NCBI GenBank assembly: GCA_965199855.1
Contig: OZ241326.1
Coordinates: forward strand, 2,211,908-2,275,907
DNA: 64,000 nt
DNA from: a bacterium
GTDB lineage: Bacteria > UBA8248
Direction of reading: 5' to 3'
Both the position numbers and the translations under genes were made by a program. This document shows positions 8,476-54,984 of the stretch, in pieces. Position 1 is the stretch's first letter. Every line of letters begins with the position of its first letter. The notes beneath the pieces were generated by a model, which worked only from the letters and a program-made list of their open reading frames with translations, was not told the DNA's origin and did not search any database.

Positions 8476-8558
8476 CGGCGCGATCGGCGCGCGTCGGGAG
8501 ATTTCCCGTCCCGCGGCGTTCATTCCGGCGGGGAGAGACTGCCGCGGCGCGGCGGGCC

Positions 8559-9269: not shown

Positions 9270-9273
9270 GCCC

Positions 9274-13835: not shown

Positions 13836-13952
13836 GAGGCTTCCGTCCCGCGCGCGCCGCCTCCGCCTGATTGACATTCGGGCGTGGTGTCGTAATCTGC
13901 GGGGCGTTTCGGGGCTACACGGGAGCGGACGAACGGACGGCGGGGAGCGGAC

Positions 13953-14603: not shown

Positions 14604-14625
14604 CTTTCAGGGAGGTTCAGGGATG

Positions 14626-14853
14626 ATGCCGATGTATGAATTTCTGTGCGGAAGCTGCGAGAAGGATTTTGAGAAAATCGTGGCGTCCGTCGAGGCCGCC
14701 GACCGCGTGGAGTGTCCCGAATGCGGCTCGCGCGAGGCGCGCCGGAAACTCTCCCTGTTCGCCAAATCCGCATCGGGCGCCGCGGCCCAGGCCTCGGCCT
14801 TCAGCGGCTACTCCGCCGGCGGCGGCTGCGGCGGGGCGTGCTCGTGCCACTAG
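14626..14853 (+). CDS. FmdB-family zinc-ribbon protein
   Basis: MPMYEFLCGSCEKDFE...VECPECGS gives a CxxC...CxxC ribbon, followed by an Ala/Gly/Cys-rich tail. The start could be 14623, 14626 or 14632. Confidence 0.75.
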   Translation: MPMYEFLCGSCEKDFEKIVASVEAADRVECPECGSREARRKLSLFAKSASGAAAQASAFSGYSAGGGCGGACSCH

Positions 14854-14937
14854 CCCCGCGGGGGCGCTGAATCCGCGCTTCCGCCGGGCCGATTCGCGCG
14901 CGATCCTTCGGGAATCTTTCAGCAGGGAGGAGAGACC

Positions 14938-40666: not shown

Positions 40667-40696
40667 TTGACACGCAATCGCCGCAGGGTGGATCAT
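40667..40696 (+). promoter_or_regulatory. candidate sigma70-type promoter of the acd-acd-selenoprotein operon
   Basis: TTGACA (40667-40672), an 18-nt spacer, then GATCAT (40691-40696), about 50 nt upstream of ATG 40749. Pattern match only. Confidence 0.35.
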
Positions 40697-40748
40697 GGCG
40701 GGCGTCGAGCGCAACCATCATCCCAAACCAGCCTGCGGGAGCCGCGAG

Positions 40749-41921
40749 ATGAGCCTGCAAACCGAAGCCGCGCTTCAGTTCGACCTGGACGACACGCAAA
40801 AGATGCTTCGCCGGACGGTGCGGGAGCTCTCCGAGCGCCACATCGCCCCGCGCGCCGCCGAAATCGACGAGAACGAGGAATACCCCGAAGACATCTATCA
40901 GATGCAGAAGGAGCACGGCCTCCTCGGCATCTTCTTCCCCGAGGAATACGGCGGCGGCGGAATGGGCTTTCTGGGCGGCTGCGTCGCCATCGAGGAGATC
41001 GCGCGCTTCTGCTCGAACTCCCCGCTCTTCATCGTGCTCAACATGCTCTCGAGCCGCGTCATCGACCTGAGCGGCACGCCGGAGCAGAAGACGCATTATA
41101 TGACGGGCCTCGCCAGGGGCGAACTTCGGGGCTCCTACGCCCTCACGGAGCCCCACGCGGGCTCCGACGCCGGGAACATCCGCACGCGCGCCGTCCGGGA
41201 GGGCGAGGAGTGGGTCATCAACGGGACGAAATGCTTCTGCACGGGACCCGACAAGGCGGACTTCATCACCGTCGCCGCCAAGACCGACCCCGGCGCGGGC
41301 GCGCGGGGCATCACCTACTACGTCGTCCCCACGGACGCGCCCGGCTTCAGCATCGACAAGCACGAGCGCAAGATGGGGATGCGCGGCATCTCGACCTGCA
41401 TGCTGCGCTTCGACAGCGTGGCCGTGCCCCTCGAGAACCAGATCGGCGAGCTGAACCAGGGCTTCAGAACCGCGATGATCGGCTTCAACCAGATGCGGCC
41501 CGCCATCGGCGCGCGCGCGGTCGGCCTCGCCCAGGGGTGCCTCGACTACGCCGCGGGCTACGCGAAGGAGCGCGAGGCCTTCGGGAAGCCCATCGCCCGC
41601 CACCAGGCCGTCCAGTTCATGCTCGCCGACATGTTCATGGACATCGAGGCGTCGCGCCTGCTCGTCTATCGCGCCGCCTCGATGGTGGACGCCGGACAAA
41701 TCGGCAAGGAGAACGCCCGGTATTTCTCGACGGCCAAGACCTACGCGGCCGACATGGCGATGAAGTGCGCGATAGACGGCATCCAGGTGCTGGGCGGGGC
41801 GGGCTACATGAAGGATCACCCGCTCGAGCGCTTCATGCGCGACGCCAAGCAGATCCAGATCGTCGAGGGGACGAGCCAGATTCAGCGGATCATCATCGCC
41901 CGCAACCTGCTCGACCTCTAG
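40749..41921 (+). CDS. acyl-CoA dehydrogenase
   Basis: I prefer ATG 40749. Contains YALTEPHAGSDAG and GGAGYMKDHPLERFMRDAKQIQIVEGTSQIQR (catalytic Glu region). Confidence 0.92.
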   Translation: MSLQTEAALQFDLDDTQKMLRRTVRELSERHIAPRAAEIDENEEYPEDIYQMQKEHGLLGIFFPEEYGGGGMGFLGGCVAIEEIARFCSNSPLFIVLNMLSSRVIDLSGTPEQKTHYMTGLARGELRGSYALTEPHAGSDAGNIRTRAVREGEEWVINGTKCFCTGPDKADFITVAAKTDPGAGARGITYYVVPTDAPGFSIDKHERKMGMRGISTCMLRFDSVAVPLENQIGELNQGFRTAMIGFNQMRPAIGARAVGLAQGCLDYAAGYAKEREAFGKPIARHQAVQFMLADMFMDIEASRLLVYRAASMVDAGQIGKENARYFSTAKTYAADMAMKCAIDGIQVLGGAGYMKDHPLERFMRDAKQIQIVEGTSQIQRIIIARNLLDL

Positions 41922-41933
41922 GAGCGCGCGGAG

Positions 41934-43103
41934 GTGGGGCCGGGGGCGGAGCCGCCCGCCGCGTTCGGGCTGAGCCGGGCGCAGCGAGCGCTGGGAGAGA
42001 GGGTCTATGCGCTGAGCCGCCGCCGCGTCGCGCCCCGCGCCGCCGACATCGACGAAAGCGGGGAATACCCCGAGGATATTTTCCAGCTCCTGAAGTCCCG
42101 CGGCCTCCTCGGCCTCTACGTCCCCGAAGAATACGGCGGGGCGGGCCTCGGCGTCCTGGAGACGTGCGTCGCCATCGAGCAGATGGCGCGCTTCTGCTCG
42201 AACTCTCCCCTTTTCTTCTCCGTCCACCTGCTCGCCACCCGCGCCGTCGCCATAGGCGGAACCGGGGCGCAGAAGAGCGTCTGGCTCCGCGGCGTAGCCC
42301 GGGGCGAGCTGCGCCCCGCCTTCTCGCTCACCGAGCCGCACGCGGGCTCCGACGCCGCGAACATATCGGCGCGCGCGGCGCGGGAGGGGGACTCGTGGGT
42401 CATCAACGGCCAGAAGTGCTACTGCACCGGCGCGAGCGTCGCCGACTTCCTCACCGTGGCGGCGAAGACCGAGGCCGGGGCGGGGGCGCGCGGCGTCTCC
42501 TTCTTCATCGTTCCCAAGGGCGAATTCCGGGTGGGCCGCCGCGAGAGGAAGATGGGGATGCGGGGAATCCCCACCTGCGAGGTGTTTTTGGAGAACGCCC
42601 ACGTCCCCCTCGAAAACATCATCGGCGATCGGGCGACGGGCTTCAGAACCGCCATGCTCGGCTTCAACCAGGCGCGGCCCGCCATCGGCGCGCGCGCGGT
42701 CGGCCTCGCCCAGGGGTGCCTCGACCACGCCGCGGGCTACGCCAAGGAGCGCGAGGCCTTCGGGAAGCCCATCGCCCGCCATCAGGCCGTCCAGTTCATG
42801 CTCGCCGACATGTTCATGGACGTCGAGGCGTCGCGCCTGCTCGTTTACCGCGCCGCCTCGATGGTGGATAATGGGCGCTATCAAAAGGAGGACGCGCATT
42901 TCATCTGCGCCGCGAAGTGCTTCGCGTCCGACGCGGCCATGAAGGCGGCCGTGGACGCGGTTCAGACCCTGGGCGGGGCGGGCTATACGAGGGATCACCC
43001 GCTCGAGCGGTTTATGAGAGACGCCAAGCAGCTGCAAATCATCGAGGGGACGAACCAGATTCAGCGCATGGCGATCGCCCGGAATCTGCTGGGCCTGAAC
43101 TGA
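41934..43103 (+). CDS. acyl-CoA dehydrogenase (tandem paralog)
   Basis: 389 aa with a GTG start. Contains FSLTEPHAGSDAA and GGAGYTRDHPLERFMRDAKQLQIIEGTNQIQR. Long stretches are identical to the upstream paralog (REAFGKPIARHQAVQFMLADMFMD). Confidence 0.92.
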   Translation: MGPGAEPPAAFGLSRAQRALGERVYALSRRRVAPRAADIDESGEYPEDIFQLLKSRGLLGLYVPEEYGGAGLGVLETCVAIEQMARFCSNSPLFFSVHLLATRAVAIGGTGAQKSVWLRGVARGELRPAFSLTEPHAGSDAANISARAAREGDSWVINGQKCYCTGASVADFLTVAAKTEAGAGARGVSFFIVPKGEFRVGRRERKMGMRGIPTCEVFLENAHVPLENIIGDRATGFRTAMLGFNQARPAIGARAVGLAQGCLDHAAGYAKEREAFGKPIARHQAVQFMLADMFMDVEASRLLVYRAASMVDNGRYQKEDAHFICAAKCFASDAAMKAAVDAVQTLGGAGYTRDHPLERFMRDAKQLQIIEGTNQIQRMAIARNLLGLN

Positions 43104-43133: not shown

Positions 43134-43754
43134 ATGAGCCGGACCATTGAAATTCTCACGCCCACCTCGTTCGTCCGCGCGGGCGATCATCCCCTGGCGG
43201 CGCGGCCGGGAGAGCTCGGCGGACTCAGAATCGGCTTTTTCCACAACAACAAGCCGAACGCCGACGCCCTCCTGGAGCGCATCGAGGAGCTCCTCGCGCG
43301 GGAGGACGAAACCCTCCGCTTCGTCCGCTGGGGAAAGCCGAACCCGACGCTGCCGGAGGCGCGCCTCGGCGAGTTCATCAAGCAGGTGGACGCGGCCGTC
43401 TGCGCGGTGGGCGACTGAGGCAGCTGCACGTCGTGGAGTATCCACGACGCGGTGGAGATGGAGAAAGCGGGGATTCCGACGGCCACGTTCTGCTCCAGCG
43501 AATTCTCCGCCCTGGGCGCGAACGAGCGGGTCGCCCTGGGGATGCCGGGCCTTCCGATAGTCGTCGTGCCGCACCCCGTGGGGGGGATTCCGCCCGAACG
43601 GGCGCGCGCCCTGGGGGACGCGGCGCTGGACGAGGTTCGGCGCGTCCTCACGGAGGACGCGGAATCGCTGCGAAGGGAATACCGCGAGCGCGCCTACGCC
43701 CCGCCCCGCCGGACGGTGCGCCACAAGGCGCTTTTCGCCCGGGGGTCGGCGTGA
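43134..43754 (+). CDS. UGSC-type selenoprotein (in-frame UGA = Sec at codon 95)
   Basis: Track ORFs 43134..43418 and 43452..43754 share one frame. They are separated only by TGA (43416-43418) and 11 sense codons. The joined reading is ...QVDAAVCAVGD-U-GSCTSWSIHDAVEMEKAGIPTATFCSSEF... The U-x-x-C motif and the SECIS-like hairpin directly downstream support Sec decoding. Confidence 0.8.
43416..43449 (+). other. UGA codon plus bacterial SECIS-like hairpin
   Basis: UGA at 43416-43418. Ten nt later there is a perfect 8-bp stem CGUCGUGG / CCACGACG (43429-43436 / 43442-43449) with apical loop AGUAU (G at the second loop position). The loop is centred about 21 nt after the UGA. Confidence 0.7.
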
Positions 43755-43800: not shown

Positions 43801-44892
43801 ATGAGCGATCCCTCCTCCGAAGCGCCTCCAGAAGCGGCGTCCCTCCCGAGCGAGCGGGTGAAGGTTCGGGACGCGCCCGAGGCGCTCGCGCGTCTCCTCG
43901 AGGCGAGGGGATGGGGCGACGGCCTGCCCGTCGTTCCCCCCACGCCCGGGCGCGTCGCCCGCATGGTGGAGGGGGCGGGGCTGGCCGCTGGGGAGGAAAT
44001 CGGCCGGATGCCGCCCCGCCAGGGAGTCGTCACGGTCGAGGCGCTCGCCGTCAACGCCGTGATGGCCGGATGCCTCCCGGCCTACATGCCCGTTCTCGTG
44101 GCGGCGGCGCGGGGGGCGCTCCAGCCGGAATTCTCGCTCCACGCGCTCCAGGCGACGACCCACCCGGTGGCGCCCCTGATCATCGTGAACGGCCCCGTCG
44201 CCGCGAGAATCGACATGAACGCGGCGTATGGATGCTTCGCCCCCGGAAACCGGGCGAACGCGACGATTGGCCGCGCGATGCGCCTGACGCTCCTGAACGT
44301 AGGCGGGGCGAGCCCGGGCGTTCTGGATCGCGCCACCCAGGGCTCGCCCGCGAAATACGCATTCTGCATCGCCGAGAACGAGGAGGAATCCCCCTGGGAG
44401 CCGCTGCACGTCGAGCGCGGCTTCGCGCCCGGGGAGAGCGCCGTCACGGTCGTGGGCTGCGAGGGGCCCCACAACGTCAACGATCACGTGAGCCACGCGG
44501 CGGAGGGCATTCTCGCCGCCGCCGCCGACACGATGTCCGTCATGGGCGGCAACAACTTCTATCTGAGGGGCGAGCCGCTCCTCGCGCTCGGCCCCGAGCA
44601 CGCGGCGACGATAGCGGGGGACGGGCTGTCGAAGGCGGACGTGAAGCGAAGGATTTTCGAGCTCGCCCGAAAGCCCGCGCGCCAGCTCCGGCGCGGCGCC
44701 ATGTGGGGGATGCAGACCTGGGGGGAGGAGATAGCGAGAAACGAGGGAGATGACGACTACGAGATTCCGCTTCTGGATCGGCCCGAAGACCTCATCGTCA
44801 TCGTGGCGGGCGGCGCCGGCAAGCACTCCTCCTACCTGCCGACGTTCGGCCCCACGCGCTCGGTGACCACCCGGGTCGATTCGCCGGCCTGA
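43801..44892 (+). CDS. conserved hypothetical protein (363 aa), operon partner of the selenoprotein
   Basis: Clean 363-aa ORF 46 nt after the selenoprotein stop. Codon usage is like its neighbours. Distinctive segments are RGWGDGLPVVPPTPGRV, AVNAVMAGCLPAYMP, YGCFAPGNRANATIGRA and VVGCEGPHNVNDH. I recognise no family. Confidence 0.7.
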   Translation: MSDPSSEAPPEAASLPSERVKVRDAPEALARLLEARGWGDGLPVVPPTPGRVARMVEGAGLAAGEEIGRMPPRQGVVTVEALAVNAVMAGCLPAYMPVLVAAARGALQPEFSLHALQATTHPVAPLIIVNGPVAARIDMNAAYGCFAPGNRANATIGRAMRLTLLNVGGASPGVLDRATQGSPAKYAFCIAENEEESPWEPLHVERGFAPGESAVTVVGCEGPHNVNDHVSHAAEGILAAAADTMSVMGGNNFYLRGEPLLALGPEHAATIAGDGLSKADVKRRIFELARKPARQLRRGAMWGMQTWGEEIARNEGDDDYEIPLLDRPEDLIVIVAGGAGKHSSYLPTFGPTRSVTTRVDSPA

Positions 44893-45005: not shown

Positions 45006-45035
45006 GTTGCCCGCGGCTTCGCCTCCGTGCTAGAT
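45006..45035 (+). promoter_or_regulatory. candidate sigma70-type promoter of the ridA-yqeB...xdhC operon
   Basis: TTGCCC (45006-45011), an 18-nt spacer, then TAGATT (45030-45035), in the 177-nt gap upstream of ridA. GAGGGAG SD lies before ATG 45070. Pattern match only. Confidence 0.35.
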
Positions 45036-45069
45036 TCCCGCTTCCGTAGAGCCTCAGAGGGAGAAAGCC

Positions 45070-45471
45070 ATGCCGAAGCAGCAGATCGACTCGGAGAAGG
45101 TGAGGCCGGTGGCCGCGTATTCCACGGGCTGGAAGGTGTCGAACGGGCATCTCGTCATGCTGGCGGGCCAGGTGGCGACCGACACGGAGGGCCGCACCGT
45201 CGGCGGAGACGACATCAAGGCCCAGGCGCGGCAGGTCTATGAGAACGTCAAGGCCGCGCTCGAGGCCGCCGGCGCCGGAATGGAGGACGTCATCCGCCTC
45301 ACCGTCTATCTCACGGATCGGGCGAATTTTCCGGGAAGCGCGGAGGTGCGGCAAGCCTACTTCAGCCCGCCCTATCCGGCGAGCACGCTCCTCATCGTGA
45401 GCGGACTGGCGAACCCGGAATGGCTCATCGAAATCGACGCCGTCGCCTTCGTGGAGGACGGGACGCCGTGA
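45070..45471 (+). CDS. RidA-family (YjgF/UK114) protein
   Basis: 133 aa. Contains LVMLAGQVA, AQARQVYENVKAALEAAGAGMEDVIRLTVYL and IEIDAVA. Confidence 0.88.
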   Translation: MPKQQIDSEKVRPVAAYSTGWKVSNGHLVMLAGQVATDTEGRTVGGDDIKAQARQVYENVKAALEAAGAGMEDVIRLTVYLTDRANFPGSAEVRQAYFSPPYPASTLLIVSGLANPEWLIEIDAVAFVEDGTP

Positions 45472-46325
45472 GAGGCGGCAGGGCGGTTTCCGAGACGCTC
45501 GTTCTCGTGAAGGGGGGCGGCGACCTCGCCACCGGCGCGGCGCACCGCCTGCGCCGCTCGGGCTTTCCCGTGATGATGACGGAAATCGAGCGTCCGACCA
45601 TGGTCCGCCGCGCCGTCTCCTTCGCCGAATGCCTCTACGCCGGCGAATGGCGGGTGGAGGGCGTGGCTTCCGCGAGGGCGGAGGGCGGCTCCCTGGAGGA
45701 GAAAATCGCCGGCGCGCGCGCGCTGATGGAGGCGGGCGCCGTTCCCGTGATGGTCGATCCGCGCGCCGAGGCGGTCGCCCGCGTCCGGCCCGCCGTCGTG
45801 ATCGACGCGATTCTCGCCAAGCGAAACCTCGGCACCCGCATCGAGGACGCCGAGGTGGTCATCGGCCTGGGGCCCGGCTTCACGGCGGGGGTCGATTGCC
45901 ACGCCGTCATCGAGACCGCCCGGGGGCACGACCTGGGGCGGGTGATACTCGAAGGGGCGGCGAAGCCGGACACGGGCGCGCCGGGCGCCATCGCGGGCTA
46001 CGCCGCCGAGCGGCTGCTGCGCGCCCCGCGCGCCGGCGCGTTCGCCTCCGCCGCCCGCATCGGGGACGCGGTGCGGGCGGGACAGGCCGTCGCCCGGGTG
46101 GACGGGGAGGAGGTGACGGCCCGCATCGACGGCGTCCTGCGCGGCCTGCTCAGGGACGGCATCGAGGTGAGCGCGGGCTTCAAGGTGGGCGACGTCGACC
46201 CCAGGGCCGAGCCTTCCCACTGCGTGACGATATCGGACAAGTCGCGCGCCGTCGGCGGCGGCGCGCTCGAGGCCGTCATGATGTTCCTGTTCGGCGTCTC
46301 CCCGGCCGCGGAGCGCGCGAATTGA
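45468..46325 (+). CDS. yqeB: YqeB/EF2563-family selenium-dependent molybdenum hydroxylase system protein
   Basis: In-frame part of ORF 45420..46325. GTG 45468 overlaps the ridA stop (GTGA). LVLVKGGGDLATGAAHRLRRSGFPVMMTEIERPTMVRRAVSFAE...VIDAILAKRNLGT...GLGPGFTAGVDCHAVIETARGHDLGRVI...IDGVLRGLLRDG...VTISDKSRAVGGGALEA matches my memory of the YqeB/EF2563 family closely. Confidence 0.8.
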   Translation: MRGGRAVSETLVLVKGGGDLATGAAHRLRRSGFPVMMTEIERPTMVRRAVSFAECLYAGEWRVEGVASARAEGGSLEEKIAGARALMEAGAVPVMVDPRAEAVARVRPAVVIDAILAKRNLGTRIEDAEVVIGLGPGFTAGVDCHAVIETARGHDLGRVILEGAAKPDTGAPGAIAGYAAERLLRAPRAGAFASAARIGDAVRAGQAVARVDGEEVTARIDGVLRGLLRDGIEVSAGFKVGDVDPRAEPSHCVTISDKSRAVGGGALEAVMMFLFGVSPAAERAN

Positions 46326-47206
46326 GTCCCGACATTCTGGCGGAAACGGTGGAAAGCGGCGCCTACCGCATCGGGCGCAGCGAAATCCCGATCAACCAGG
46401 CGAACGGCAACGCCTTCGTCCCCCCCGCGCAGTTCTATCTGGCGGCGGGCGACGCGCTCGAGCGCATCGCGTGGGCGGTGAGCCAGAACCTCCCCGTCCT
46501 GCTCGTCGGAGAGACCGGCGTCGGCAAGACGCTCTCGGTGCGCTACCTCGCCCACATGACGAACAACGGCTTCAGGCGCGTGAACCTCAACGGCATGACC
46601 ACGGTCGATGAATTCGTGGGCAAGCTGATGATCAACGAGCAGGGCACCTACTGGGTGAACGGCATCCTGATCGACGCGATGCAGTCGGGAGACTGGCTGC
46701 TCATCGACGAGATCAACGCCTGCCTGCCCGAAATCGCCTTCTGCCTCCACAGCCTGCTCGACGACGACCGCATGATCGTCCTCTCGGAGTATGACGGCCG
46801 CGTCGTCAAGCCCCATCCGGACTTCAGGCTCTTCGCCAGCATGAACCCCCACGAGGACAGGAGATACGGCGGCACGAAGCCCCTGAACGAGGCGCTTCTG
46901 GATCGCTTCCCCGTCACCGTGAGGATGGACTACCTGCCCTTCGAGGCGGAGGTCGAGGTCATCATGCGGCAGAGCGGGAACGGCGACGAGGAGCTCGTCC
47001 GGCGCATGGTGCGCGTGGGCCACGACGCGCGCGAGGCCATGAGGAACGAAAAGGTGTTCTGCACCTTCAGCACCCGGCGCCTGATTGACTGGGCGCGCAT
47101 GGCGGCGCGGTTCGACCCCATGGAGGCCGCCGTCTCGACCATCTTCAGCAAGGTCAACTCGTTCGACGCCAAGGTGCTCGAGGACATCGTGGACAACCAC
47201 TTCTAG
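46322..47206 (+). CDS. CobS-like AAA+ ATPase (AAA_5 / MoxR-type)
   Basis: In-frame end of ORF 45629..47206. TTG 46322 overlaps the yqeB stop (TTGA). Walker A LLVGETGVGKT, Walker B DWLLIDEINA, then FRLFASMNP...LNEALLDRFPV. 294 aa. Confidence 0.8.
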   Translation: MSPDILAETVESGAYRIGRSEIPINQANGNAFVPPAQFYLAAGDALERIAWAVSQNLPVLLVGETGVGKTLSVRYLAHMTNNGFRRVNLNGMTTVDEFVGKLMINEQGTYWVNGILIDAMQSGDWLLIDEINACLPEIAFCLHSLLDDDRMIVLSEYDGRVVKPHPDFRLFASMNPHEDRRYGGTKPLNEALLDRFPVTVRMDYLPFEAEVEVIMRQSGNGDEELVRRMVRVGHDAREAMRNEKVFCTFSTRRLIDWARMAARFDPMEAAVSTIFSKVNSFDAKVLEDIVDNHF

Positions 47207-47221
47207 CCGGGAGACGCAGGC

Positions 47222-48991
47222 ATGGAGCGCCGACGCGCCCGCCTCGAGACCCTCGCGCAGGTGACGGCGCGCGACTACGGCCTCGCCCTGCTGTTCGGCT
47301 CCCGGACGGAGACCGGGGACGACGCCGTCCTCGTCGAGGACCCGGAGCGGACCCTGGCGCGCCTGGGCGGCGGCCTCGACGACGAGCGCGTCCTGCGATA
47401 CCAGAAGGGCATGACGCTCATCGAGGTGGCCCGCAGGCTCCAGGGGACGCTTCGCTGGGCGGGCCGCGCGGCCCTCGCCAACCGGGAGACGCCGGGCCTT
47501 TTCCACCTCTGGCGCGCCCTCGAGGACGCCAGATGCGAGAACCGCCTCGCCGAGTCGCTGCCCGGCACGAGAAAGAATTTCCGCGCCTTCGTCCGTCCCG
47601 CGATCGAGGACGCCGAGCGAAGCCACGCGCGGGGGGAGCTCCCCCTGCTTCTCCAGATTCAATGGGGCATCTACCTCGCCGGCGTCGGCCAGACGCCCGG
47701 CGCCGCCTCCTCAAGGCCCGGGGATTTGCCCTCGGCCTGGTTCGATTCCGTCATCGCCCAGATTCTTCAGAGGCTCGTCCCGATCATCGACCGCGCCTGC
47801 GCGGCCAAAGAGCCGAAGACCGCCTTCGACTGCGCGAACGAAATCTACGACGCCGTGCGGCGCTTCCTCACCGAGGAGCAGCTCGCGCAGATGCGCGAGA
47901 GCGAGGAGCTCTCGGAGCTTCCGGATGAAATTCTGGAGAAAATCGAGAACCAGAAACTCCAGGGGGAGGAGTCCGAGTCGCCGGAGGCGCTCCACCCGGA
48001 GGCGCTCGACGAGGTGGACGCGGACGAGGGCGAGCAGGTCGAGCTCACGCCCGAGGAGCTCGCCGCCCTGGGCCGCTGGGCGTCTCCCTGGTTCGAGATG
48101 GAGGGCGGCGGGAAGGAAGTCCACCCGACGGCGGAGCATCCCGACGAGCGCACCATCGTCCTGCCCCCGGAGGGCAAGGCGGAGGAATACGCGGCGATCA
48201 TGGACGGCGCGGGCAGCCACATCAAGGTGCTGGCGTGGAAGCTCACGCAGATCATTCAGGAGAGAGCCTACGCCCGCTTCAGCGGCTCGCACCGCTCCGG
48301 CAAGCTGAACGTCCCGAAGCTCTGGAAGCAGCGCCTGGGCAAATTTCATCTTTTTCACCGCAAGGAGGAGCCCGAGAAGCTCGACGTCTGCTTCACCCTC
48401 CTCGTGGACGAGAGCGGCAGCATGAACCGCGAATCGAAATACGTAGCCGCCAGGGAGGCGACCGTGTTCTTCGCGGAAGTCCTCGACCGGCTGGACGTGC
48501 CCTTCGAGGTGATCGGCTACTCCACCGAGAGCTCGGAGGCGGCCATGGCGGCCGCGCTCGGCCACATCCCCGCCTTCAAGTTCAGGCACATCCGGCACTC
48601 CCCCCTTCAGCACCGCATCTACAAGGGCTTCGAGGACGCCTTCCCCCAGGTCAAGAACCGTCTCGTCAACATTTATCCGCGCTTCAACAACTGGGACGAG
48701 GAGCATCTGCTGTTCGCCTACCGAAGGCTCAGCCAGCGGCCCGAGGAGGAGAAGATCATCATCATCACCTCGGACGGCCAGCCCAACGGCGACGCGGCCC
48801 ACCTCGTGAGCGCGGTCGGCCGCCTCCAGGCGCTCGGCGTGCGGATCATCGGCGTCGGCGTGGTGGACCCCTTCGTCGAGCAGATCTACCCGAACCACAT
48901 CGTGGTGCAGGACCTCTCCCAGCTCTCCACGGAGCTGGTGAACATTCTGCGGCGCGAGCTGCTCGGGGGGGCGGAGGGCCGCCCTTGGTAG
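47222..48991 (+). CDS. CobT-like protein with C-terminal von Willebrand factor A domain
   Basis: 589 aa. Helical N-terminal part, acidic linker, then a VWA domain with MIDAS motif LLVDESGSM...IIITSDGQPNG. Begins 15 nt after the AAA+ gene. Confidence 0.8.
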   Translation: MERRRARLETLAQVTARDYGLALLFGSRTETGDDAVLVEDPERTLARLGGGLDDERVLRYQKGMTLIEVARRLQGTLRWAGRAALANRETPGLFHLWRALEDARCENRLAESLPGTRKNFRAFVRPAIEDAERSHARGELPLLLQIQWGIYLAGVGQTPGAASSRPGDLPSAWFDSVIAQILQRLVPIIDRACAAKEPKTAFDCANEIYDAVRRFLTEEQLAQMRESEELSELPDEILEKIENQKLQGEESESPEALHPEALDEVDADEGEQVELTPEELAALGRWASPWFEMEGGGKEVHPTAEHPDERTIVLPPEGKAEEYAAIMDGAGSHIKVLAWKLTQIIQERAYARFSGSHRSGKLNVPKLWKQRLGKFHLFHRKEEPEKLDVCFTLLVDESGSMNRESKYVAAREATVFFAEVLDRLDVPFEVIGYSTESSEAAMAAALGHIPAFKFRHIRHSPLQHRIYKGFEDAFPQVKNRLVNIYPRFNNWDEEHLLFAYRRLSQRPEEEKIIIITSDGQPNGDAAHLVSAVGRLQALGVRIIGVGVVDPFVEQIYPNHIVVQDLSQLSTELVNILRRELLGGAEGRPW

Positions 48992-49011
48992 CGGAAGGCG
49001 GCCTCGCGCGG

Positions 49012-49812
49012 ATGATCGGCGCCCGAGCGGGGCGGATCGTCGCGGCGGTCGGGGCGGGGGGGAAAACGAGCCTGCTCACGGCGCTCGCCCGGGAGTTTCA
49101 CGCCCGAAGCGGCGCGCCCGCCCTCCTCACGACGACCACCAGAATTTTCGCGCCCCTGCCGGAGGAGGGGATTCCCCTCGCCCTGGGCGACGCCGCCGCC
49201 CTCTCGAGGAGGCTGCGCCCCTACATGAGAGCCTGCGGCGTCTCCTGGCTCGCCCGCGGACGCGAGGGCCGCGCGCCGGTTCCGGGCCGGGAGGGCGAGC
49301 GCCGCATGAAGCTGCGCGGCTTCGCGCCCTCCGAAATCGAGGGATTGCGTCTCGCGGAGGGCCTCACCCTCATCGAGGCGGACGGGGCGAGGCGCCTGCC
49401 CGTCAAGGCGCCCGGCGCGCGGGAGCCCGTCCTGCCCGAAGGCGTGGACGCCGTGCTGGGCGTCGTGGGGCTGGACGCCCTGGGCGCGCCCCTGGACGAG
49501 GCCCATGCGTTCCGCCCGGAGCTGCTCTCGCGGATATGCCGCCTGGACGCCGGCGCGGAGATCACGGCGGAGGCGATCGGGGCGCTGTGCGCGCACCCCG
49601 AGGGGCTGTTTCGCAAGGCGGACGGCGGCGCGCGCAGGTGGATCGTCCTCAACAAGGCCGATTTGGAAGCCTCGCTGGAAAAACGAAGAAAGATCGCCTA
49701 TACTATCCGGGAAATGGCGGGAAAGCCCCATGGGCCGGCGGACGGGGTTCTCCTGACCTCCTGCCTGAAGAACAGGCCGGAAGTTTTGCTGCGAATCGGG
49801 CCGGACGCCTGA
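49012..49812 (+). CDS. yqeC: YqeC-family selenium-dependent hydroxylase accessory protein
   Basis: In-frame end of ORF 48235..49812, starting at ATG 49012 (alternative TTG 48985). VAAVGAGGKTSLLTALA (P-loop), LLTTTTRIFAP, LIEADGARRLPVKAPGAREPVLP and HPEGLFRK...WIVLNKADL match the YqeC pattern I remember. Confidence 0.8.
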   Translation: MIGARAGRIVAAVGAGGKTSLLTALAREFHARSGAPALLTTTTRIFAPLPEEGIPLALGDAAALSRRLRPYMRACGVSWLARGREGRAPVPGREGERRMKLRGFAPSEIEGLRLAEGLTLIEADGARRLPVKAPGAREPVLPEGVDAVLGVVGLDALGAPLDEAHAFRPELLSRICRLDAGAEITAEAIGALCAHPEGLFRKADGGARRWIVLNKADLEASLEKRRKIAYTIREMAGKPHGPADGVLLTSCLKNRPEVLLRIGPDA

Positions 49813-49842
49813 GAGGAGGCGGCCCGCCTGCGCGGAGGAGAG

Positions 49843-50988
49843 ATGAGCGAGGACGTTTTCAGGGAAATGGCGAGGATGAAGGAGAAGGGGCAGGCGGGCG
49901 CGCTCGCCACCGTCGTGGCCCGCAAGGGCTCCGCGCCCATGAGCGGCGACGCGAAGATGCTCGTGCGCGAGGACGGCAGCGCCGAGGGCACCGTCGGGGG
50001 CGGCTGCCTGGAGGCCGAGGTCTGGGAGACCGCGATGAGCGTCCTCGAAACGGGCGCGCCCGAGAAGCTCTCCTTCGACCTCACCCAGAAGGAGGCGGAG
50101 GACAGCGGCCACATCTGCGGCGGCGTGGTGGAGATACTGGTGGAGCCGCTCCGGGCGTTTCCCCGGGAGCTGCTCGATGAGATCAACCGCGTGAAAAACC
50201 GGGGCGGAAGTGCCGCGCTGGCGACCATCGTCCAGCCGGGGGCGCTCGACATCCCGAAGCCCGAGGCCGGGAAAATGCTCTTCAGGCGCGACGGCAGCTC
50301 CGTGGGGGAAATTCCGCGCTATTCGGCGGAAGTCTGGGCGGAGAGCGCGCAGGTGATTCGCCAGGGCAGCCCCACCCTCCTGCACTTCAGCCAGGGCGCC
50401 GCGCGCGGCGGAGGAAAGAAGCCCGCGCCCGGCGAGGCGACCGAAATTTTCGTGGAGCCCATCTCCGGCCAGCCGCTCGTCTATATCTTCGGCGGCGGGC
50501 ACGTATCCTTCTGCGTCGCGCAGGCGGCCTGGCTCGCCGGCTTCCGGGTCGCCATCGTGGAGGACAGACCCTCCTTCGCCAACAAGGAGCGCTTCCCGAT
50601 GGCCGAGGCGTTCCACGTGGGCGATTTCCCGGAAGTTTTCAGGGAAATTCCGGTGGACGAGGCGGACTACCTGGCCATCATCACCCGGGGCCACGCGAAC
50701 GACGAGGTCGTCCTCGAATGGGCGATGAAGACGAAGGCGCGCTACATCGGGATGATCGGCTCGAAGAGCAAGGTGCTGCTCACCTACCGCCATCTTCAGG
50801 AGAAGGGCTTCGCGCGGAGCGAGCTCATCGAGCGCGTCCACGCGCCCATCGGCCTGGACATCGGCGCCGACACGCCGGGCGAGATCGGAATCGCCATCGC
50901 CGCCGAGTTCGTCCGCCATCGCCGCCGGGGCGAGGCGGAAAGCGAGGGCGCGGGCAGCAAGCGGGTGCGCCTGGGAAGAAAGGCGTAA
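49843..50988 (+). CDS. XdhC/CoxI-family molybdenum-cofactor insertion chaperone
   Basis: 381 aa. N-terminal XdhC_CoxI segment ALATVVARKGSAPMSGDAKMLV...GTVGGGCLEAEV. C-terminal Rossmann part LVYIFGGGHVSFCVAQAA...IITRGHANDEVVLEWAM...YIGMIGSKSK. Confidence 0.88.
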   Translation: MSEDVFREMARMKEKGQAGALATVVARKGSAPMSGDAKMLVREDGSAEGTVGGGCLEAEVWETAMSVLETGAPEKLSFDLTQKEAEDSGHICGGVVEILVEPLRAFPRELLDEINRVKNRGGSAALATIVQPGALDIPKPEAGKMLFRRDGSSVGEIPRYSAEVWAESAQVIRQGSPTLLHFSQGAARGGGKKPAPGEATEIFVEPISGQPLVYIFGGGHVSFCVAQAAWLAGFRVAIVEDRPSFANKERFPMAEAFHVGDFPEVFREIPVDEADYLAIITRGHANDEVVLEWAMKTKARYIGMIGSKSKVLLTYRHLQEKGFARSELIERVHAPIGLDIGADTPGEIGIAIAAEFVRHRRRGEAESEGAGSKRVRLGRKA

Positions 50989-51032: not shown

Positions 51033-51845
51033 ATGAGCCACCTGCGCGCGCTCGCCGCGGCGGCGACGGACTTCCTCATCCCCCCGAAATGCCTTTTGTG
51101 CGCGAGCGCCCTGGAAATCGGCGGCGCGCGGACGATATGCGCGCCCTGCGACGAGGCGCTCGATCGCTTCGAGCCGCCCTGGTGCCCCAGGTGCGGCGCG
51201 CCCTTCCCCTCCCACGCCGCCCTGTCGCACTCCCCCGCCCACCACTGCGCGGAGTGCGCGGAAAACGTCTTTCACTTCGACGGGGCGCGCGCCGTCGGCG
51301 CCTTCAAGGGCTCTCTCCGGGAGCTGGTCCACCTGTTCAAATACGGAGGCGTCACCAAGCTGGCGCACGAGTTCGCCCCCCGGCTCGCCGCGCTCGCCGC
51401 GGACGAGCTGGGCGTCGGGCGGGACGATCCGGACGTGATCGTAACCCACGTGCCGATAGCGTCCGCGCGCTGGCGGGAGCGGGGCTTCGATCAAACGCGC
51501 CTGCTCGCGCTCCGGACGGCGAAGAGCCTCGGAGCGCCGCACGCGGACTGTCTGGAGCGCGCGAAGGAGACCCGTCCGCAAACCGGGCTCTCCGCGAGCG
51601 AGCGGCGCCGCAACGTACGGGGCGCCTTCCGGGCGCGCCCGAAGGCGGCGCGGATGCTCGAAGGGAAGACGTGCATCCTCCTCGACGACGTCATCACCAC
51701 CGGCTTCACCGCCTCGGCCTGCGCCCGCGAGCTCAAGCGGGCGGGCGCCGCCGCCGTGCACGCGCTCACCATCTGCCGCTCGCGAGGGCCCGCGCCCCCG
51801 CCGCGCGCGGAGGGGGTCAACGAGAGGGCTACGCATAACCTGTAA
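51033..51845 (+). CDS. ComF-family phosphoribosyltransferase-domain protein
   Basis: In-frame part of ORF 50718..51845, starting at ATG 51033. N-terminal paired Cys motifs (PPKCLLCA...CAPC, CPRCG...CAEC). PRTase loop CILLDDVITTGFT. Confidence 0.85.
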   Translation: MSHLRALAAAATDFLIPPKCLLCASALEIGGARTICAPCDEALDRFEPPWCPRCGAPFPSHAALSHSPAHHCAECAENVFHFDGARAVGAFKGSLRELVHLFKYGGVTKLAHEFAPRLAALAADELGVGRDDPDVIVTHVPIASARWRERGFDQTRLLALRTAKSLGAPHADCLERAKETRPQTGLSASERRRNVRGAFRARPKAARMLEGKTCILLDDVITTGFTASACARELKRAGAAAVHALTICRSRGPAPPPRAEGVNERATHNL

Positions 51846-52704: not shown

Positions 52705-53739
52705 TCACCTCCTCCCGCTCCCGGCCATGCGGGCGGCGAGGAGGAGGGCGTCCACCATGCTGGCGTGATCCGCCGCGCCCTCCCCCGCGATGGGAAACCC
52801 CGTCCCGTGCTCCACCGAGGTTCTGACGATGGGCAGGCCCAGCGTCACGTTGACGCCGCGCACGGCGGCGCGCCCGCTCGCGTCGAAGCGAAAGCACATG
52901 AGCTTGCCGGGAATGTGTCCCTGGTCGTGATACATGGCCACGACGCCGTCGTAGCGTCCGCCCCGCAGCTCCGCGAAAATCGTGTCCGGCGGCGCGGGGC
53001 CATGCGCGTCAACCCCCGCCTCCCGCAAATCCGAGACGGCGGGGGCTATCTCCCGCGCCTCCTCCTCCCCGAACAGGCCGGATTCCCCCGCGTGGGGGTT
53101 GAGGCCCGCGACGCCGACGCGGGGCGCCCTGCGATCCAGCCGGCGCAGGGCGTCGGCCAGAACCCGCCCCACGTGGACGATTCGCTTCCTCTTCACGCGC
53201 CTGATCGCCTCCCGGAGCGGGCAGTGGGTGGAGAGGTGGGCGATGCGCATCCTCCCGCGCGCCAGCATCATGACGGGGCGCCCGCCGCCGCACAGGTCGG
53301 CGAGCATCTCGGTATGCCCCGGATAGTCGTAGCCGCCGGCGCGCAGGGCCTCCTTGCTTATCGGCGCGGTCGCCACGGCGTCCGCCAGACCCGCGCGCGC
53401 CATCGAGACGGCCGCCTCGACGCATTCTCCCGCCGCCCTGCCCAGTTCGGGCAGGACTTTTCCGAAAACCCGGCTCCCGGCGGGGACGTTCCCCAGGTCC
53501 ACCACCGGCGTCCGCGCGGACGCCGGACGCGGGGCGCGCGCCTCCTCGCGCGCGATGGATTCCAGCCGCGCGGGAATCCCCATCCTGCGGGCGTGCCTGC
53601 GAAGCGCCGCCACGTCGCCGACGATGAGGGGCGCGCATCTCTTCCGAACGCGGGGTTCGAGGACGGCTTTCAGGCACACCTCCGGCCCCACGCCCGCCGG
53701 ATCGCCCATGGTCATCGCTATGACGGGTCGTCCCTTCAC
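52705..53739 (-). CDS. pdxA: 4-hydroxythreonine-4-phosphate dehydrogenase family (PdxA-like)
   Basis: ORF 52705..53823. I prefer GTG 53739, which is preceded by GGGAGGGAAGGGG and gives (M)KGRPVIAMTMGDPAGVGPEV. Also GYDYPGHTEML, GLNPHAGE and YHDQGHIP. Confidence 0.88.
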   Translation of the reverse strand: MKGRPVIAMTMGDPAGVGPEVCLKAVLEPRVRKRCAPLIVGDVAALRRHARRMGIPARLESIAREEARAPRPASARTPVVDLGNVPAGSRVFGKVLPELGRAAGECVEAAVSMARAGLADAVATAPISKEALRAGGYDYPGHTEMLADLCGGGRPVMMLARGRMRIAHLSTHCPLREAIRRVKRKRIVHVGRVLADALRRLDRRAPRVGVAGLNPHAGESGLFGEEEAREIAPAVSDLREAGVDAHGPAPPDTIFAELRGGRYDGVVAMYHDQGHIPGKLMCFRFDASGRAAVRGVNVTLGLPIVRTSVEHGTGFPIAGEGAADHASMVDALLLAARMAGSGRR

Positions 53740-53876
53740 GGCGGCCCCTTCCCTCCCTTCGCCCCCTCGGCTCCGGGAGCGCATCGGGGGAAACCCTTGA
53801 CTTCGGCGGCGCGTCCTCCCCAAGATGCGCCTCGCACTATGAAGGCATCCGAAGCCCCCATCAAGAGGAAAACCCC

Positions 53877-54386
53877 TTGGGAGAGAAGGGCGCGAGCGCG
53901 CGGAGGACGACGCGCAAACTCCATGAGCTCGGCTTCACGCACGTCCTGATGATTCCGGACAGCGAGAGCCGGCTCCTTTACGAGGCGCTGGAGCGCGACG
54001 AGAGGATCGACCTCATCACCCCCTGCCGGGAGGGCGAGTCCGTCGCCATCGCCGCGGGGCTCTGGACGGGCGGCCAAAAGCCCCTGCTCGTGATTCAGAA
54101 CACCGGGCTGATGGAGGCGGGAGACGCCCTGCGGGGCTGCGGGACGGGCCCCGGGGCGCCTTTGCGGATGATGGTCGGCTGGCGGGGATACGGCGGGGCG
54201 ACCGCCGGAAAGCTGCCGATTGATTCGGCCTACGCCTTCACGGAGCCCCTGCTTGAGGCTTGGAGAATCCCGACCTGGCGGCTCATGTCCGACGACGACC
54301 TGGGGGCGCTCGACCTGATGGACGAGGCGGCGGCGTCCGCCTCCTACCCGGCGGCCGTCCTCACCGGCTACGGGTTCAGACCATGA
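53877..54386 (+). CDS. TPP-dependent decarboxylase, alpha (pyrimidine-binding) subunit; sulfopyruvate/phosphonopyruvate decarboxylase-like
   Basis: 169 aa. GFTHVLMIPDSESRLLYEAL...REGESVAIAAGLWTGGQKPLLVIQNTGL. The N-terminal module of a TPP enzyme is encoded here as a separate small protein. Confidence 0.7.
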   Translation: MGEKGASARRTTRKLHELGFTHVLMIPDSESRLLYEALERDERIDLITPCREGESVAIAAGLWTGGQKPLLVIQNTGLMEAGDALRGCGTGPGAPLRMMVGWRGYGGATAGKLPIDSAYAFTEPLLEAWRIPTWRLMSDDDLGALDLMDEAAASASYPAAVLTGYGFRP

Positions 54387-54399: not shown

Positions 54400-54984
54400 T
54401 TGATAGAGCGCATGGAGCTGTTCCGGGCGCTGGCCGCGCGCAGGACGGACGAAATCGTGGTGATGACCATGACCGCCACCCTCCAGTGGCCGCTGGTCTC
54501 GAAGAGCGACCTCGATTTCGACTTTCTGGCGTTCGGCATGGGCCACGCCGCCGACTTCGGCCTGGGTCTCGCCCTCGCGCGTCCCGAGCGGAAGACCATC
54601 GTCTGGAAAGGGGACGGGGGACTCCTGATGAGCCTGGGTTCGCTGGTGACGCTGGCGCGCTACGCGCCGGGAAACCTCGTCGTCTTCCTGCTCGAGAACA
54701 GGAGCTACGAGATGGTGGGCGGGCAGGCGCTTCCGCCCCGCGCCGATTTCGTGGAGCTGGCGCGCGCCTCGGGCTTCGAGGGCGGCGGCGCGACGGGCGC
54801 GGGCAAGGTCGCGCGCGTTGACTCTCTCGAAGGGTTTCAGGACGCCCTGCCGCGGATGCTCGCCGAGCAAGGCCCCCATTTCATCGTTCTTCCGGTCAAG
54901 AACAGCGAGGAGCTCCCGCCCGTGAACCATTCCGACCACGCCGGGAGAATCAGGACGCTGAGAGGGGCGCTGGGCGTCCAGTGA
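54400..54984 (+). CDS. TPP-dependent decarboxylase, beta (diphosphate-binding) subunit
   Basis: 194 aa. GMGHAADFGLGLALARPERKTIVWKGDGGLLMSLGSLVTLA...NLVVFLLENRSYE carries the GDG...N TPP motif. ATG 54412 is an alternative start. Confidence 0.7.
   Translation: MIERMELFRALAARRTDEIVVMTMTATLQWPLVSKSDLDFDFLAFGMGHAADFGLGLALARPERKTIVWKGDGGLLMSLGSLVTLARYAPGNLVVFLLENRSYEMVGGQALPPRADFVELARASGFEGGGATGAGKVARVDSLEGFQDALPRMLAEQGPHFIVLPVKNSEELPPVNHSDHAGRIRTLRGALGVQ

Follow-up and report, generated by a model that had tools for sequence, protein, structure and literature searches.

A CobS/CobT-like AAA+/VWA pair in a yqeB-yqeC-xdhC operon, a probable maturation machine for a molybdenum hydroxylase encoded elsewhere

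AAA+/VWA cofactor maturases have precedents in CobST, CoxD and NorQD, to which the gene pair described here would add a further member. Closest in sequence to both of its proteins are CobS and CobT of CobNST (9ujv, 9uka; bioRxiv 10.64898/2026.07.21.739949), where CobST drives CobN. As in CobS/CobT, the two genes are adjacent, and the VWA protein is built like CobT, with a helical N-terminal domain, an acidic disordered linker of approximately 50-90 residues, helices and a 'shaft', and finally the MIDAS-bearing VWA domain. Contrary to CobS and CobT, both proteins fall far below the equivalog cut-offs, and the pair has yqeB/yqeC/xdhC or the genes of a Mo hydroxylase as its genomic partners, the presumed client being a molybdoenzyme instead of CobN and a corrinoid.

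A second related system is formed by CoxD (AAA+) and CoxE (VWA) from Oligotropha carboxidovorans, which are encoded together with a Mo hydroxylase of the XDH family, and where CoxD is needed for the ATP-dependent sulfuration of Mo in folded apo-CO dehydrogenase (PMC4240915). CoxD is the best functional precedent for the pair. CoxD/CoxE had been named as the closest analogy in the initial annotation of this DNA, which stands as far as function is concerned, but the lineage is a different one: an assignment of the pair to CoxD/CoxE was rejected with a VWA_CoxE (PF05762) score of 15.9 bits against a cut-off of 26.4. Also unlike the Cox system, neither CoxF nor a copper step is involved here, and CoxE has been described as membrane-bound, whereas the VWA protein of the pair has the soluble layout of CobT.

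NorQ/NorD and CbbQ/CbbO share the AAA_5 and CbbQ_C domains with the ATPase of the pair. NorQD inserts FeB into cNOR by a mechanism that involves a finger in the pore and remodelling of the client via a linker (PMC13036017), and CbbQ/CbbO is a Rubisco activase. Their clients differ from the one presumed for the pair, and the N-terminal domain of the putative adaptor is here CobT-like, neither NorD- nor CbbO-like.

Regarding selenium, the canonical accessory module is arranged as xdhC-yqeB-yqeC(-mocA/ygfJ) (Haft & Self 2008, PMC2276186), and in C. difficile genetics shows that the selD-dependent use of purines also requires yqeB (PMC11448449). The present locus holds bona fide YqeB and YqeC with XdhC adjoining, although in the order yqeB-[AAA-VWA]-yqeC-xdhC instead of xdhC-yqeB-yqeC, and mocA was not found among the clustered genes. 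All selenium accessory loci described so far lack the AAA+/VWA pair, and the claim that the combination is undescribed agrees with the selenium-cofactor literature consulted, in which no account of it was found. The structurally defined Mo=Se enzyme is the nicotinate dehydrogenase NdhFSLM from Eubacterium barkeri (3hrd). Its four-subunit design with a split large subunit is common to the hydroxylases found beside the pair in the loci termed type C below, and has no counterpart in the window, the whole 64-kb stretch of DNA that was analysed.

Organization of the operon and families of its products

The locus is, on balance, probably a Mo-cofactor/selenium maturation operon (yqeB, yqeC, xdhC) with an acquired CobS/CobT-derived machine, whose client would be a Mo hydroxylase encoded elsewhere. 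Six genes, from ridA to xdhC, run head to tail at positions 45070-50988 (Table 1). The ridA and yqeB genes overlap by GTGA, yqeB and the AAA+ gene by TTGA, and a 15-nt spacer containing GGGAGA separates the AAA+ and VWA genes. The yqeC gene can start at ATG 49012 or at TTG 48985; the latter overlaps the VWA stop codon and is the start picked by gene callers in a 99%-identical contig (L001). Re-inspection of the sequence recovered the gene order, overlaps and motifs as first annotated.

Table 1. Genes of the operon and its neighbours, with positions in the window
Feature	Position	Strand	Description
UGSC-family selenoprotein gene	43134..43754	+	in-frame TGA 43416-43418; neighbour outside the core
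ridA-family gene	45070..45471	+	133 aa, PF01042; first in the coupled run
yqeB	45468..46325	+	285 aa, TIGR03309; selenium-cofactor trait marker
CobS-like AAA+ ATPase	46322..47206	+	294 aa, AAA_5 + CbbQ_C; putative motor
CobT-like VWA protein	47222..48991	+	589 aa, CobT_C + VWA; putative adaptor
yqeC	48985..49812	+	266-275 aa depending on the start; P-loop protein, TIGR03172 + PF19842
xdhC-family Moco insertion factor	49843..50988	+	381 aa, PF02625 twice + PF13478
comF-like phosphoribosyltransferase	51060..51845	+	DZR_2 + Pribosyltran; doubtful member of the system

The initial assignments of YqeB, YqeC and XdhC to their families hold, the first two above NCBIfam cut-offs. YqeB reaches 347.8 bits with TIGR03309 (cut-off 220) over model positions 1-255 of 256; its AF2 model (pLDDT 90.6) predicts a Rossmann-like domain and a biotinyl/lipoyl-like barrel, and Cys252 is invariant. 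YqeC scores 165 bits with TIGR03172 (cut-off 73) and 118 bits with PF19842 (cut-off 27.6), and has a P-loop-like N terminus with the Walker-A-like motif AVGAGGKTS. In XdhC, the N-terminal domain PF02625 (XdhC_CoxI) is matched in two stretches and followed by the Rossmann domain PF13478 (XdhC_C), all above cut-offs. At the equivalog level, this protein remains below both its closest model, the aldehyde oxidoreductase maturation factor NF045664 (303.8 vs 350), and XdhC proper, TIGR02964 (111.8 vs 161.6). RidA matches PF01042 with 95.8 bits and is under the cut-off of TIGR00004.

The ATPase combines AAA_5 (98.6 bits) with a CbbQ_C lid, and among single-domain PDB matches CobS (9ujv) ranks first, ahead of CbbQ and NorQ. 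Walker A (GETGVGKT, residues 63-70), Walker B (LLIDEIN, residues 126-132) and the sensor-1 residue Asn175 are invariant in 68 out of 68 sequences. With this domain architecture, the intact motifs and an adjoining MIDAS-bearing VWA protein, the pair has the features of the MoxR class. The VWA protein matches CobT_C with 63.5 bits in addition to VWA, and the profile of its family aligns with CobT (9uka_G) across residues 100-620 of 637. Its AF2 model predicts a helical N-terminal domain (1-232), a disordered acidic linker (245-289), a long helix (320-356), a low-confidence 'shaft' (354-383) and the VWA domain (389-580), with NorD VWA and midasin MIDAS domains as the top Foldseek matches. The MIDAS motif VDESGSM occupies residues 395-401, and D396, S398, S400 and T435 are invariant in all 70 VWA sequences.

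Family scores and layout thus bear out the description of the pair as CobS/CobT-like, with scores far from the equivalogs themselves: 85.2 bits against a cut-off of 558.55 for CobS (TIGR01650) and 51.4 against 759.05 for CobT (TIGR01651). The pair is thus a diverged CobS/CobT paralogue that keeps their domain layout.

Distribution of the pair and the hydroxylase client

Around 107 non-redundant loci with the pair, belonging to two phyla, fall into three neighbourhood types, each of them monophyletic for both proteins, and ATPase identity across the types is 60-72%. Type A (yqeB-AAA-VWA-yqeC-xdhC) is found in Nitrospinota/Tectomicrobia-like organisms and includes the window. Here yqeB lies immediately 5' of the ATPase gene in 44/44 loci and yqeC immediately 3' of the VWA gene in 40/41, so that the wedging of the pair between yqeB and yqeC, first noticed in the window, is conserved; ridA is present in most type A loci, not all. 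Type B consists of yqeB-AAA-VWA only, with yqeB directly upstream in all seven loci and XDH-family genes 4-5 kb downstream in three of them. Type C, from Chloroflexota, has the order FAD-Fer2-MoL-MoM-AAA-VWA in each of the 39 loci with sufficient flank, often with xdhC approximately 6 kb downstream, and its pair scores 98.7 and 79.6 bits with the CobS and CobT equivalog models.

A search of 5.8 billion proteins yielded 64 full-family clusters of the VWA protein, all from metagenomes or MAGs. Among 65 proteins within the E-value threshold, P0065 was the weakest and was left out; JGI annotates it as CobT, and it is 29% identical over 29% of the query. The pair was not found outside MAG lineages, and E. 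coli, E. faecalis and C. difficile, models of the selenium trait, do without it; the pair is known so far solely from uncultured lineages. The closest YqeB homologues outside the family of loci belong to xdhC-yqeB-yqeC(-mocA) modules lacking the pair.

This distribution bears on the idea that the two proteins are the cobaltochelatase subunits CobS and CobT proper, serving a cobN elsewhere and encoded in the operon by chance. Such a role would fit the equal domain layout and the fact that CobS and CobT head the sequence matches in both NCBIfam and PDB. It is nevertheless extremely improbable, given the deficits of 85 vs 558 bits (CobS) and 51 vs 759 bits (CobT), and given that the pair makes up a small family of its own whose linkage to yqeB or a Mo hydroxylase is kept in ~107 loci of two phyla. 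In addition, no cobN or other B12 gene is present in the Pfam-annotated gene calls of seven representative loci.

No hydroxylase gene accompanies the operon in the window, as had been annotated. Queries with FAD, 2Fe-2S and Mo subunits gave no tblastn match in the 64 kb, and only housekeeping functions are encoded by the ORFs scanned with Pfam, which include all but a few around 26.4-28.1 and 60-64 kb, and by the genes called in contigs L001-L003, which are syntenic with the window or nearly identical to it. An XDH-family Mo hydroxylase next to the pair, the situation known from CoxD/CoxE, occurs in 39/39 type C and 3/7 type B loci and in 0/45 of type A within about 7-10 kb; for two complete type A genomes, no hydroxylase was assigned to them among the 120 matches listed. 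The absence of the client, first considered unusual, is not so, since canonical xdhC-yqeB-yqeC-mocA modules can also stand apart from the hydroxylase (L083) and yqeB of C. difficile is isolated (PMC11448449).

In type C, the pair immediately follows the genes of an NdhFSLM-like hydroxylase, which has four subunits, including split Mo subunits of 434 and 336 aa. These best match NdhL and NdhM from E. barkeri (3hrd_A/B) with 246 and 237 bits, compared with 163 and 161.5 bits for the next-best matches, and the position of the split coincides. The type C hydroxylases reach no equivalog cut-off, selenium-specific ones included, and the genes around them in the inspected loci do not make up a nicotinate pathway. 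Membership of the pair in Mo-hydroxylase maturation is thus supported by context. Because in another phylum it is encoded directly behind a nicotinate-dehydrogenase-like Mo enzyme, the pair makes a good candidate for a maturation step that is energy-driven and so far undescribed.

A putative maturation step and the question of selenium

The assembly of ring and adaptor is inferred by analogy with CobST and NorQD, and so far the nature of the client and the chemistry of the step are inferences too. Six copies of the 294-aa AAA+ protein would assemble into a ring driven by ATP, with the 589-aa VWA protein as its adaptor. The N-terminal domain of the latter may dock on the ATPase lid, while the finger or shaft preceding the VWA domain would enter the pore of the ring, and the client would be held by the MIDAS face and the N-terminal domain. 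The likeliest client is an apo form of an XDH-family Mo hydroxylase encoded elsewhere in the genome or, alternatively, this hydroxylase in complex with XdhC-bound cofactor. Remodelling by the motor would then allow the cofactor or the terminal chalcogen ligand to be installed, with YqeB and YqeC presumably supplying selenium in the type A lineage.

That the pair acts in the selenium step itself can be proposed tentatively. The core of the initial annotation, a motor for Mo-hydroxylase maturation with its client elsewhere, is supported by context (type C, 39/39), and its selenium-specific part is a different matter, for which the only evidence is the adjacency to yqeB. Within 10 kb, type C loci contain no yqeB, yqeC or selD, and therefore the pair may not be specific for selenium; selenium-specific action is plausible but unproven. 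In its strongest form, the pair would be the first ATP-driven 'selenium insertase', opening the apo hydroxylase or XdhC-Moco so that selenium delivered by YqeB/YqeC takes the place of the terminal ligand (oxo or sulfido) on Mo. This is a rather doubtful reading; if true, Chloroflexota would harbour selenium-dependent hydroxylases that had gone unrecognised, namely their NdhFSLM-like enzymes.

The pair could also serve one clade of Mo hydroxylases as a general chaperone of assembly or Moco insertion, involved in CoxD-like sulfuration, subunit assembly or XdhC handover without any selenium-specific role, and its adjacency to yqeB would then reflect mere clustering of maturation genes. The type C loci, where the pair is linked to hydroxylase and xdhC without the selenium genes, speak for this, as do the role of CoxD in sulfuration and hydroxylases scoring below every selenium-specific equivalog cut-off. 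However, the TTGA-coupled yqeB-AAA junction is retained in 44/44 type A and 7/7 type B loci, the type C enzyme is nearest to NdhFSLM, the only Mo=Se hydroxylase defined by a structure, and close YqeB homologues (62% identity) occur in Chloroflexota, an overlap with type C shown at the level of the phylum. A purely general chaperone is accordingly considered unlikely.

Neighbouring genes

Upstream of the operon, the UGSC gene scores 136 bits with NF041046 (cut-off 125) and 161.8 bits with PF24696, and a hairpin is found at 43429-43449, 3' of its in-frame TGA. With this codon the organism evidently decodes Sec and, by established knowledge, should make selenophosphate, which implies SelD; selD itself was found neither in the 64 kb nor in the 155 loci. 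The Sec gene that had been annotated as abutting the operon is thus real, as judged by its in-frame TGA and NF041046 score. UGSC and ridA are set apart by a 363-aa gene plus a gap of 177 nt. The adjacency is not conserved in type A, where L003/L011 and several further loci, some of them otherwise syntenic, lack both UGSC and the 363-aa gene. Throughout type A, two acyl-CoA dehydrogenase (ACAD) genes also precede the operon.

These neighbours raise the option of a nearby non-molybdenum client, either UGSC with its 363-aa partner or the two ACADs, or else of an unrelated role in mobile elements or defence. The constancy of the ACAD genes in type A, the presence of UGSC and the 363-aa gene in many of these loci, and the occurrence of distant CobS/T-like pairs in prophage-like contexts (L080) would be compatible with it. 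Nonetheless, it is very improbable, as neither type B nor type C loci contain UGSC, the 363-aa gene or the ACADs, several type A loci lack the first two as well, and the flanks have no mobile-element features; yqeB and XDH-family genes are the only partners common across types. On the other side of the operon, the comF-like gene follows xdhC in most type A loci.

The yqeB-yqeC operon

The G+C content of the window is about 69%, and its plus strand carries, between 45070 and 50988, six tightly packed genes, among which those of a 294-aa AAA+ ATPase and a VWA protein (together, the pair) lie between yqeB and yqeC. The stop of ridA and the start of yqeB overlap in GTGA, yqeB and the ATPase gene overlap in TTGA, and a 15-nt spacer bearing a GGGAGA ribosome-binding site separates the ATPase gene from that of the VWA protein. 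A promoter and terminator scan of the operon interior was uninformative: it gave two weak sites resembling promoters and, on the plus strand, no terminator.

Features of the operon and of other parts of the window
Feature	Coordinates	Strand	Evidence or remark
Low-G+C stretch	2001-6392		54-56% G+C
710-aa N6-DNA methylase/HSDR_N_2 fusion	4263-6392	-	inside low-G+C stretch
Two tandem acyl-CoA dehydrogenase (ACAD) genes	40695-43103	+	upstream of operon
UGSC-family selenoprotein gene	43134-43754	+	in-frame TGA 43416-43418, context GD-U-GSC
9-bp hairpin	43429-43449		~11 nt 3' of the TGA
363-aa ORF	43801-44892	+	no family match
ridA	45070-45471	+	PF01042
yqeB	45468-46325	+	TIGR03309, 347.8 bits (cut-off 220)
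AAA+ ATPase	46322-47206	+	AAA_5 plus CbbQ_C
VWA protein, 589 aa	47222-48991	+	CobT_C plus VWA
yqeC	49012 (ATG) or 48985 (TTG) to 49812	+	TIGR03172, 165 bits (cut-off 73); PF19842
xdhC	49843-50988	+	two XdhC_CoxI stretches plus XdhC_C
comF-like gene	~51060-51845	+	next after xdhC
PdxA-like dehydrogenase	52705-53823		divergently oriented
TPP_enzyme_N	53877-54386		split thiamine-diphosphate enzyme
TPP_enzyme_C	54400-54984		split thiamine-diphosphate enzyme

Profile searches bore out the YqeB and YqeC identities proposed in the initial annotation, both proteins scoring above their NCBIfam cut-offs. XdhC is matched at the level of its domains but reaches the equivalog cut-off of neither NF045664 (303.8 against 350) nor TIGR02964. 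The Walker A (GETGVGKT), Walker B (LLIDEIN) and MIDAS (VDESGSM) motifs ascribed to the pair are likewise present. The AF2 model of YqeB (pLDDT 90.6) comprises a Rossmann-like domain and a biotinyl/lipoyl-like barrel. Cys252, inside the motif C(F/V)TISDKSR, is invariant, and a second motif, GLGPGFTAG.DCHAVIET.RGH, is also conserved, both being candidate chalcogen- or cofactor-binding features.

The ATPase and its VWA adaptor

The nearest solved relatives of the two proteins by sequence are CobS and CobT. The ATPase matches CobS (9ujv) at 98 bits, followed by CbbQ and NorQ, and the VWA family profile matches CobT (9uka_G) at 100.7 bits, covering residues 100-620 of 637. The AlphaFold model of the VWA protein, the putative adaptor, has a pLDDT of 76. 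In it, residues 1-232 form a helical N-domain that includes a small sheet, 245-289 a disordered linker of acidic character and 320-356 a long helix; after a low-confidence segment (354-383) comes the VWA domain (389-580). This predicted layout is that of CobT, where an M48C-like N-domain and a linker of ~90 residues precede helices α0'-α0, a shaft reaching into the pore of the CobS ring, and a MIDAS-bearing VWA domain, and where the CobN client is gripped between the two domains of CobT close to the MIDAS site (bioRxiv 10.64898/2026.07.21.739949). Foldseek places the VWA part beside NorD of NorQD complexes and midasin MIDAS domains.

All 68 ATPases compared keep Walker A, the Asp-Glu of Walker B and the sensor-1 residue Asn175 unchanged. 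In the adaptor, the MIDAS residues D396, S398, S400 and T435 are invariant (70/70), D518 is kept in 68 of the 70, and the N-domain motif W-H-A-L-E-D-A-R-x-E-N is nearly invariant, as is an NNWDEEH motif. Identity between locus types is unusually high for the ATPase (60-72%) compared with the adaptor (30-48%), and a search of 1.84 billion representatives puts all ATPases in one 50%-identity cluster. This search returned a single single-domain representative (P0189, 75% identity), the other matches being mostly multi-AAA midasins. Beyond the ATPase's own cluster, the best-scoring relatives are giant midasins of eukaryote type, in which 6-11 AAA domains match at 33-43% identity; these matches underline the common ancestry of CobS, midasin and the window ATPase.

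Despite their likeness to CobS and CobT, the two proteins score 85 against the CobS equivalog cut-off of 558 and 51 against the CobT cut-off of 759, and the genomic context contradicts a genuine cobaltochelatase. That reading, which the initial annotation had named as one that would undo its proposal, was therefore rejected as extremely improbable. Its description of the pair as CobS/CobT-like holds, and the analogy drawn with CoxD/CoxE is one of function only: CoxD/CoxE membership is ruled out by a VWA_CoxE score of 15.9 against a cut-off of 26.4 and by the genomic context.

Weak matches in Lachnospiraceae (loci L079 and L080) were also rejected as family members, representing a prophage-like CobS/T-like pair unrelated to this family. 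In L080, a 604-aa AAA_5 protein and a 689-aa CobT_C/VWA protein are encoded in a prophage-like region (6424-10549), with SSB, an ECF-type sigma factor, a DNA methylase and a MazE-like gene as neighbors. The L080 pair forms its own mobile-element branch within the superfamily that it shares with the window pair.

Locus types and the link to molybdenum hydroxylases

In a set of 5.8 billion proteins, the VWA family amounts to no more than 64 full-family clusters; of the 65 that passed the E-value threshold, the weakest (P0065) is a JGI-annotated CobT. The members of the family come without exception from metagenomes or MAGs. An exact-sequence look-up of the window VWA protein gave no record, and contexts were taken from homologues. 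Scanning GTDB genomes and JGI metagenomes and adding exact look-ups yielded 155 loci, and the pair is carried by about 107 after duplicate removal. These fall into three neighborhood types (A, B and C), each monophyletic for both proteins in neighbor-joining trees.

Type A, to which the window belongs, includes 45 loci labeled 'bacterium', Nitrospinota or Candidatus Tectomicrobia, with a VWA identity to the window of 53-99% and the order (ACAD-ACAD-[UGSC-363aa])-[ridA]-yqeB-AAA-VWA-yqeC-xdhC-[comF]. The placement first noticed in the window, with yqeB on one side of the pair and yqeC on the other, is conserved in the type, yqeB lying immediately 5' in 44 of 44 loci and yqeC immediately 3' in 40 of 41. 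The closest YqeB homologues outside this family (~60% identical) sit in canonical xdhC-yqeB-yqeC(-mocA) modules that lack the pair, so the insertion is lineage-specific. Some of these modules lie beside hydroxylase genes (L084) and others stand alone (L083).

No xanthine-dehydrogenase-family (XDH-family) subunit was found in any of the 45 type A loci, whose mean flanks are ~7.3 and 7.7 kb. Within the 64-kb window, tblastn with the FAD, 2Fe-2S and Mo subunits gave no match, and all other directly scanned ORFs (a set excluding a few near 26.4-28.1 kb and 60-64 kb) are housekeeping genes such as icd, ksgA, lepA/B, htrA, carB, pyrB, mfd and rodZ. The window thus lacks a client, as initially reported, but this is less of an oddity than it was taken for, since yqeB/yqeC modules also stand without an adjoining client in L083 and in C. 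difficile (PMC11448449). Two complete type A genomes gave no match to the type B hydroxylase large subunit among the best 120 of 1,990. No selD was detected in the window or the 155 loci by tblastn with an E. coli SelD query.

Type B (7 loci, VWA identity to the window 42-47%) has the order yqeB-AAA-VWA only. Its YqeB also exceeds the TIGR03309 cut-off (376.9 bits), and three of the seven loci have an XDH-family enzyme, here unsplit, 4-5 kb 3' of the pair. In one of them, L047, a DMSO-reductase-family molybdopterin oxidoreductase between the VWA and XDH-family genes is split into three ORFs (13530-15873), possible causes being a Sec codon in frame or a frameshift from long-read sequencing. The related locus L004 has a rhodanese gene ~2 kb away from the pair.

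Type C comprises 55 loci from Chloroflexota (Anaerolineales, Chloroflexia), with identities of 33-41% for the VWA protein and 61-71% for the ATPase. Wherever 1.5 kb or more of sequence is available upstream (39 of 39 loci), the order is FAD-Fer2-MoL(434 aa)-MoM(336 aa)-AAA-VWA, where MoL and MoM are split Mo subunits, and xdhC is often found ~6 kb downstream. The hydroxylase reaches no NCBIfam equivalog cut-off. MoL and MoM match NdhL and NdhM of the Eubacterium barkeri nicotinate dehydrogenase (3hrd_A/B) at 246 and 237 bits, against only 163 and 161.5 bits for the next solved structure, and the point of division is the same in both enzymes. The E. barkeri enzyme (3hrd) is the structurally defined Mo=Se hydroxylase. 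The proposed service of the pair to a Mo hydroxylase is favored by its place directly behind one in type C; the selenium specificity is not, as yqeB, yqeC and selD are all absent there within 10 kb.

Three systems serve as precedents for the role of the pair. CobS is an ATP-dependent ring into which CobT inserts its shaft, presenting CobN (bioRxiv 10.64898/2026.07.21.739949); NorQ twists and stretches the NorD linker, permitting FeB insertion (PMC13036017); and CoxD is needed for [MoO3] to be turned into [MoO2SH] by MgATP-dependent reductive sulfuration within folded CO dehydrogenase (PMC4240915). Because of these precedents, and starting from the observed genomic linkage and architecture, we infer an assembly, a client and a chemical step: the pair would be a motor and adaptor remodelling an apo XDH-family hydroxylase, or such a hydroxylase complexed with XdhC-bound cofactor, and allowing the cofactor or terminal chalcogen to be installed. 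In types A and B, selenium would be supplied by YqeB and YqeC. The pair probably acts in Mo-hydroxylase maturation, and its participation in the selenium step itself is a tentative suggestion, less likely than not. The type C loci without yqeB favor a selenium-independent hydroxylase chaperone, a reading that we consider rather unlikely. A service to neighboring non-Mo genes, or an unrelated role, seems very improbable, given that those neighbors are not conserved.

It is already known that AAA+/VWA pairs mature metal cofactors, including a Mo hydroxylase cofactor via CoxD/E; what is new is the recruitment of a CobS/CobT-derived lineage to yqeB/yqeC and to NdhFSLM-like hydroxylases. In line with the initial suspicion that the gene combination is undescribed, the selenium-cofactor literature examined mentions no AAA+ or VWA partner (PMC2276186, PMC5322559, PMC11448449), and a full-text search for selenium-dependent molybdenum hydroxylase and AAA+ returned nothing. 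Labile-selenium delivery to molybdenum hydroxylases is the least understood biological selenium route (PMC11448449). Maturation by a conserved pair that is tied to yqeB by translational coupling in one phylum, and is part of an NdhFSLM-like hydroxylase operon in another, would bear on this route. To our knowledge, genetic support exists there for yqeB only, and we know of no energy-requiring step. The hydroxylase, XdhC, YqeB, YqeC and the pair form a co-expressible set of parts with which cofactor or chalcogen installation and its need for ATP become testable. The CobS/CobT lineage would also reach past tetrapyrrole chelation, strengthening the emerging view of MoxR-class AAA+/VWA pairs as general metal-cofactor installers (CobST, NorQD, CoxDE). 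The pair is not a universal mechanism, since model selenium-trait organisms lack it and its members all belong to uncultured lineages; though so confined, it offers a testable handle on the open question of selenium installation.

Other genes around the operon

In every type A locus, even where VWA identity is as low as 53%, the ACAD genes lie directly 5' of the operon; types B and C lack them. This adjacency may be synteny and no more, or the genes may be linked in function, the putative hydroxylase perhaps acting on a CoA ester.

The UGSC gene, with its in-frame Sec codon, implies that the organism makes selenophosphate, and the hairpin next to its TGA could be a SECIS element. It is always accompanied by the 363-aa ORF, which has no sequence match in Pfam, NCBIfam or PDB, and this two-gene unit is found in many, not all, type A loci. 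As the adjacency is not conserved, the UGSC gene was ruled out as a component of the system, and the abutting Sec gene loses the weight initially given to it.

No tRNA genes were found in the window. The low-G+C stretch with the methylase fusion is probably a horizontally acquired restriction-modification island. On the other side of the operon, the PdxA-like dehydrogenase gene adjoins the split thiamine-diphosphate enzyme, which presumably resembles sulfopyruvate or phosphonopyruvate decarboxylase-type pairs.
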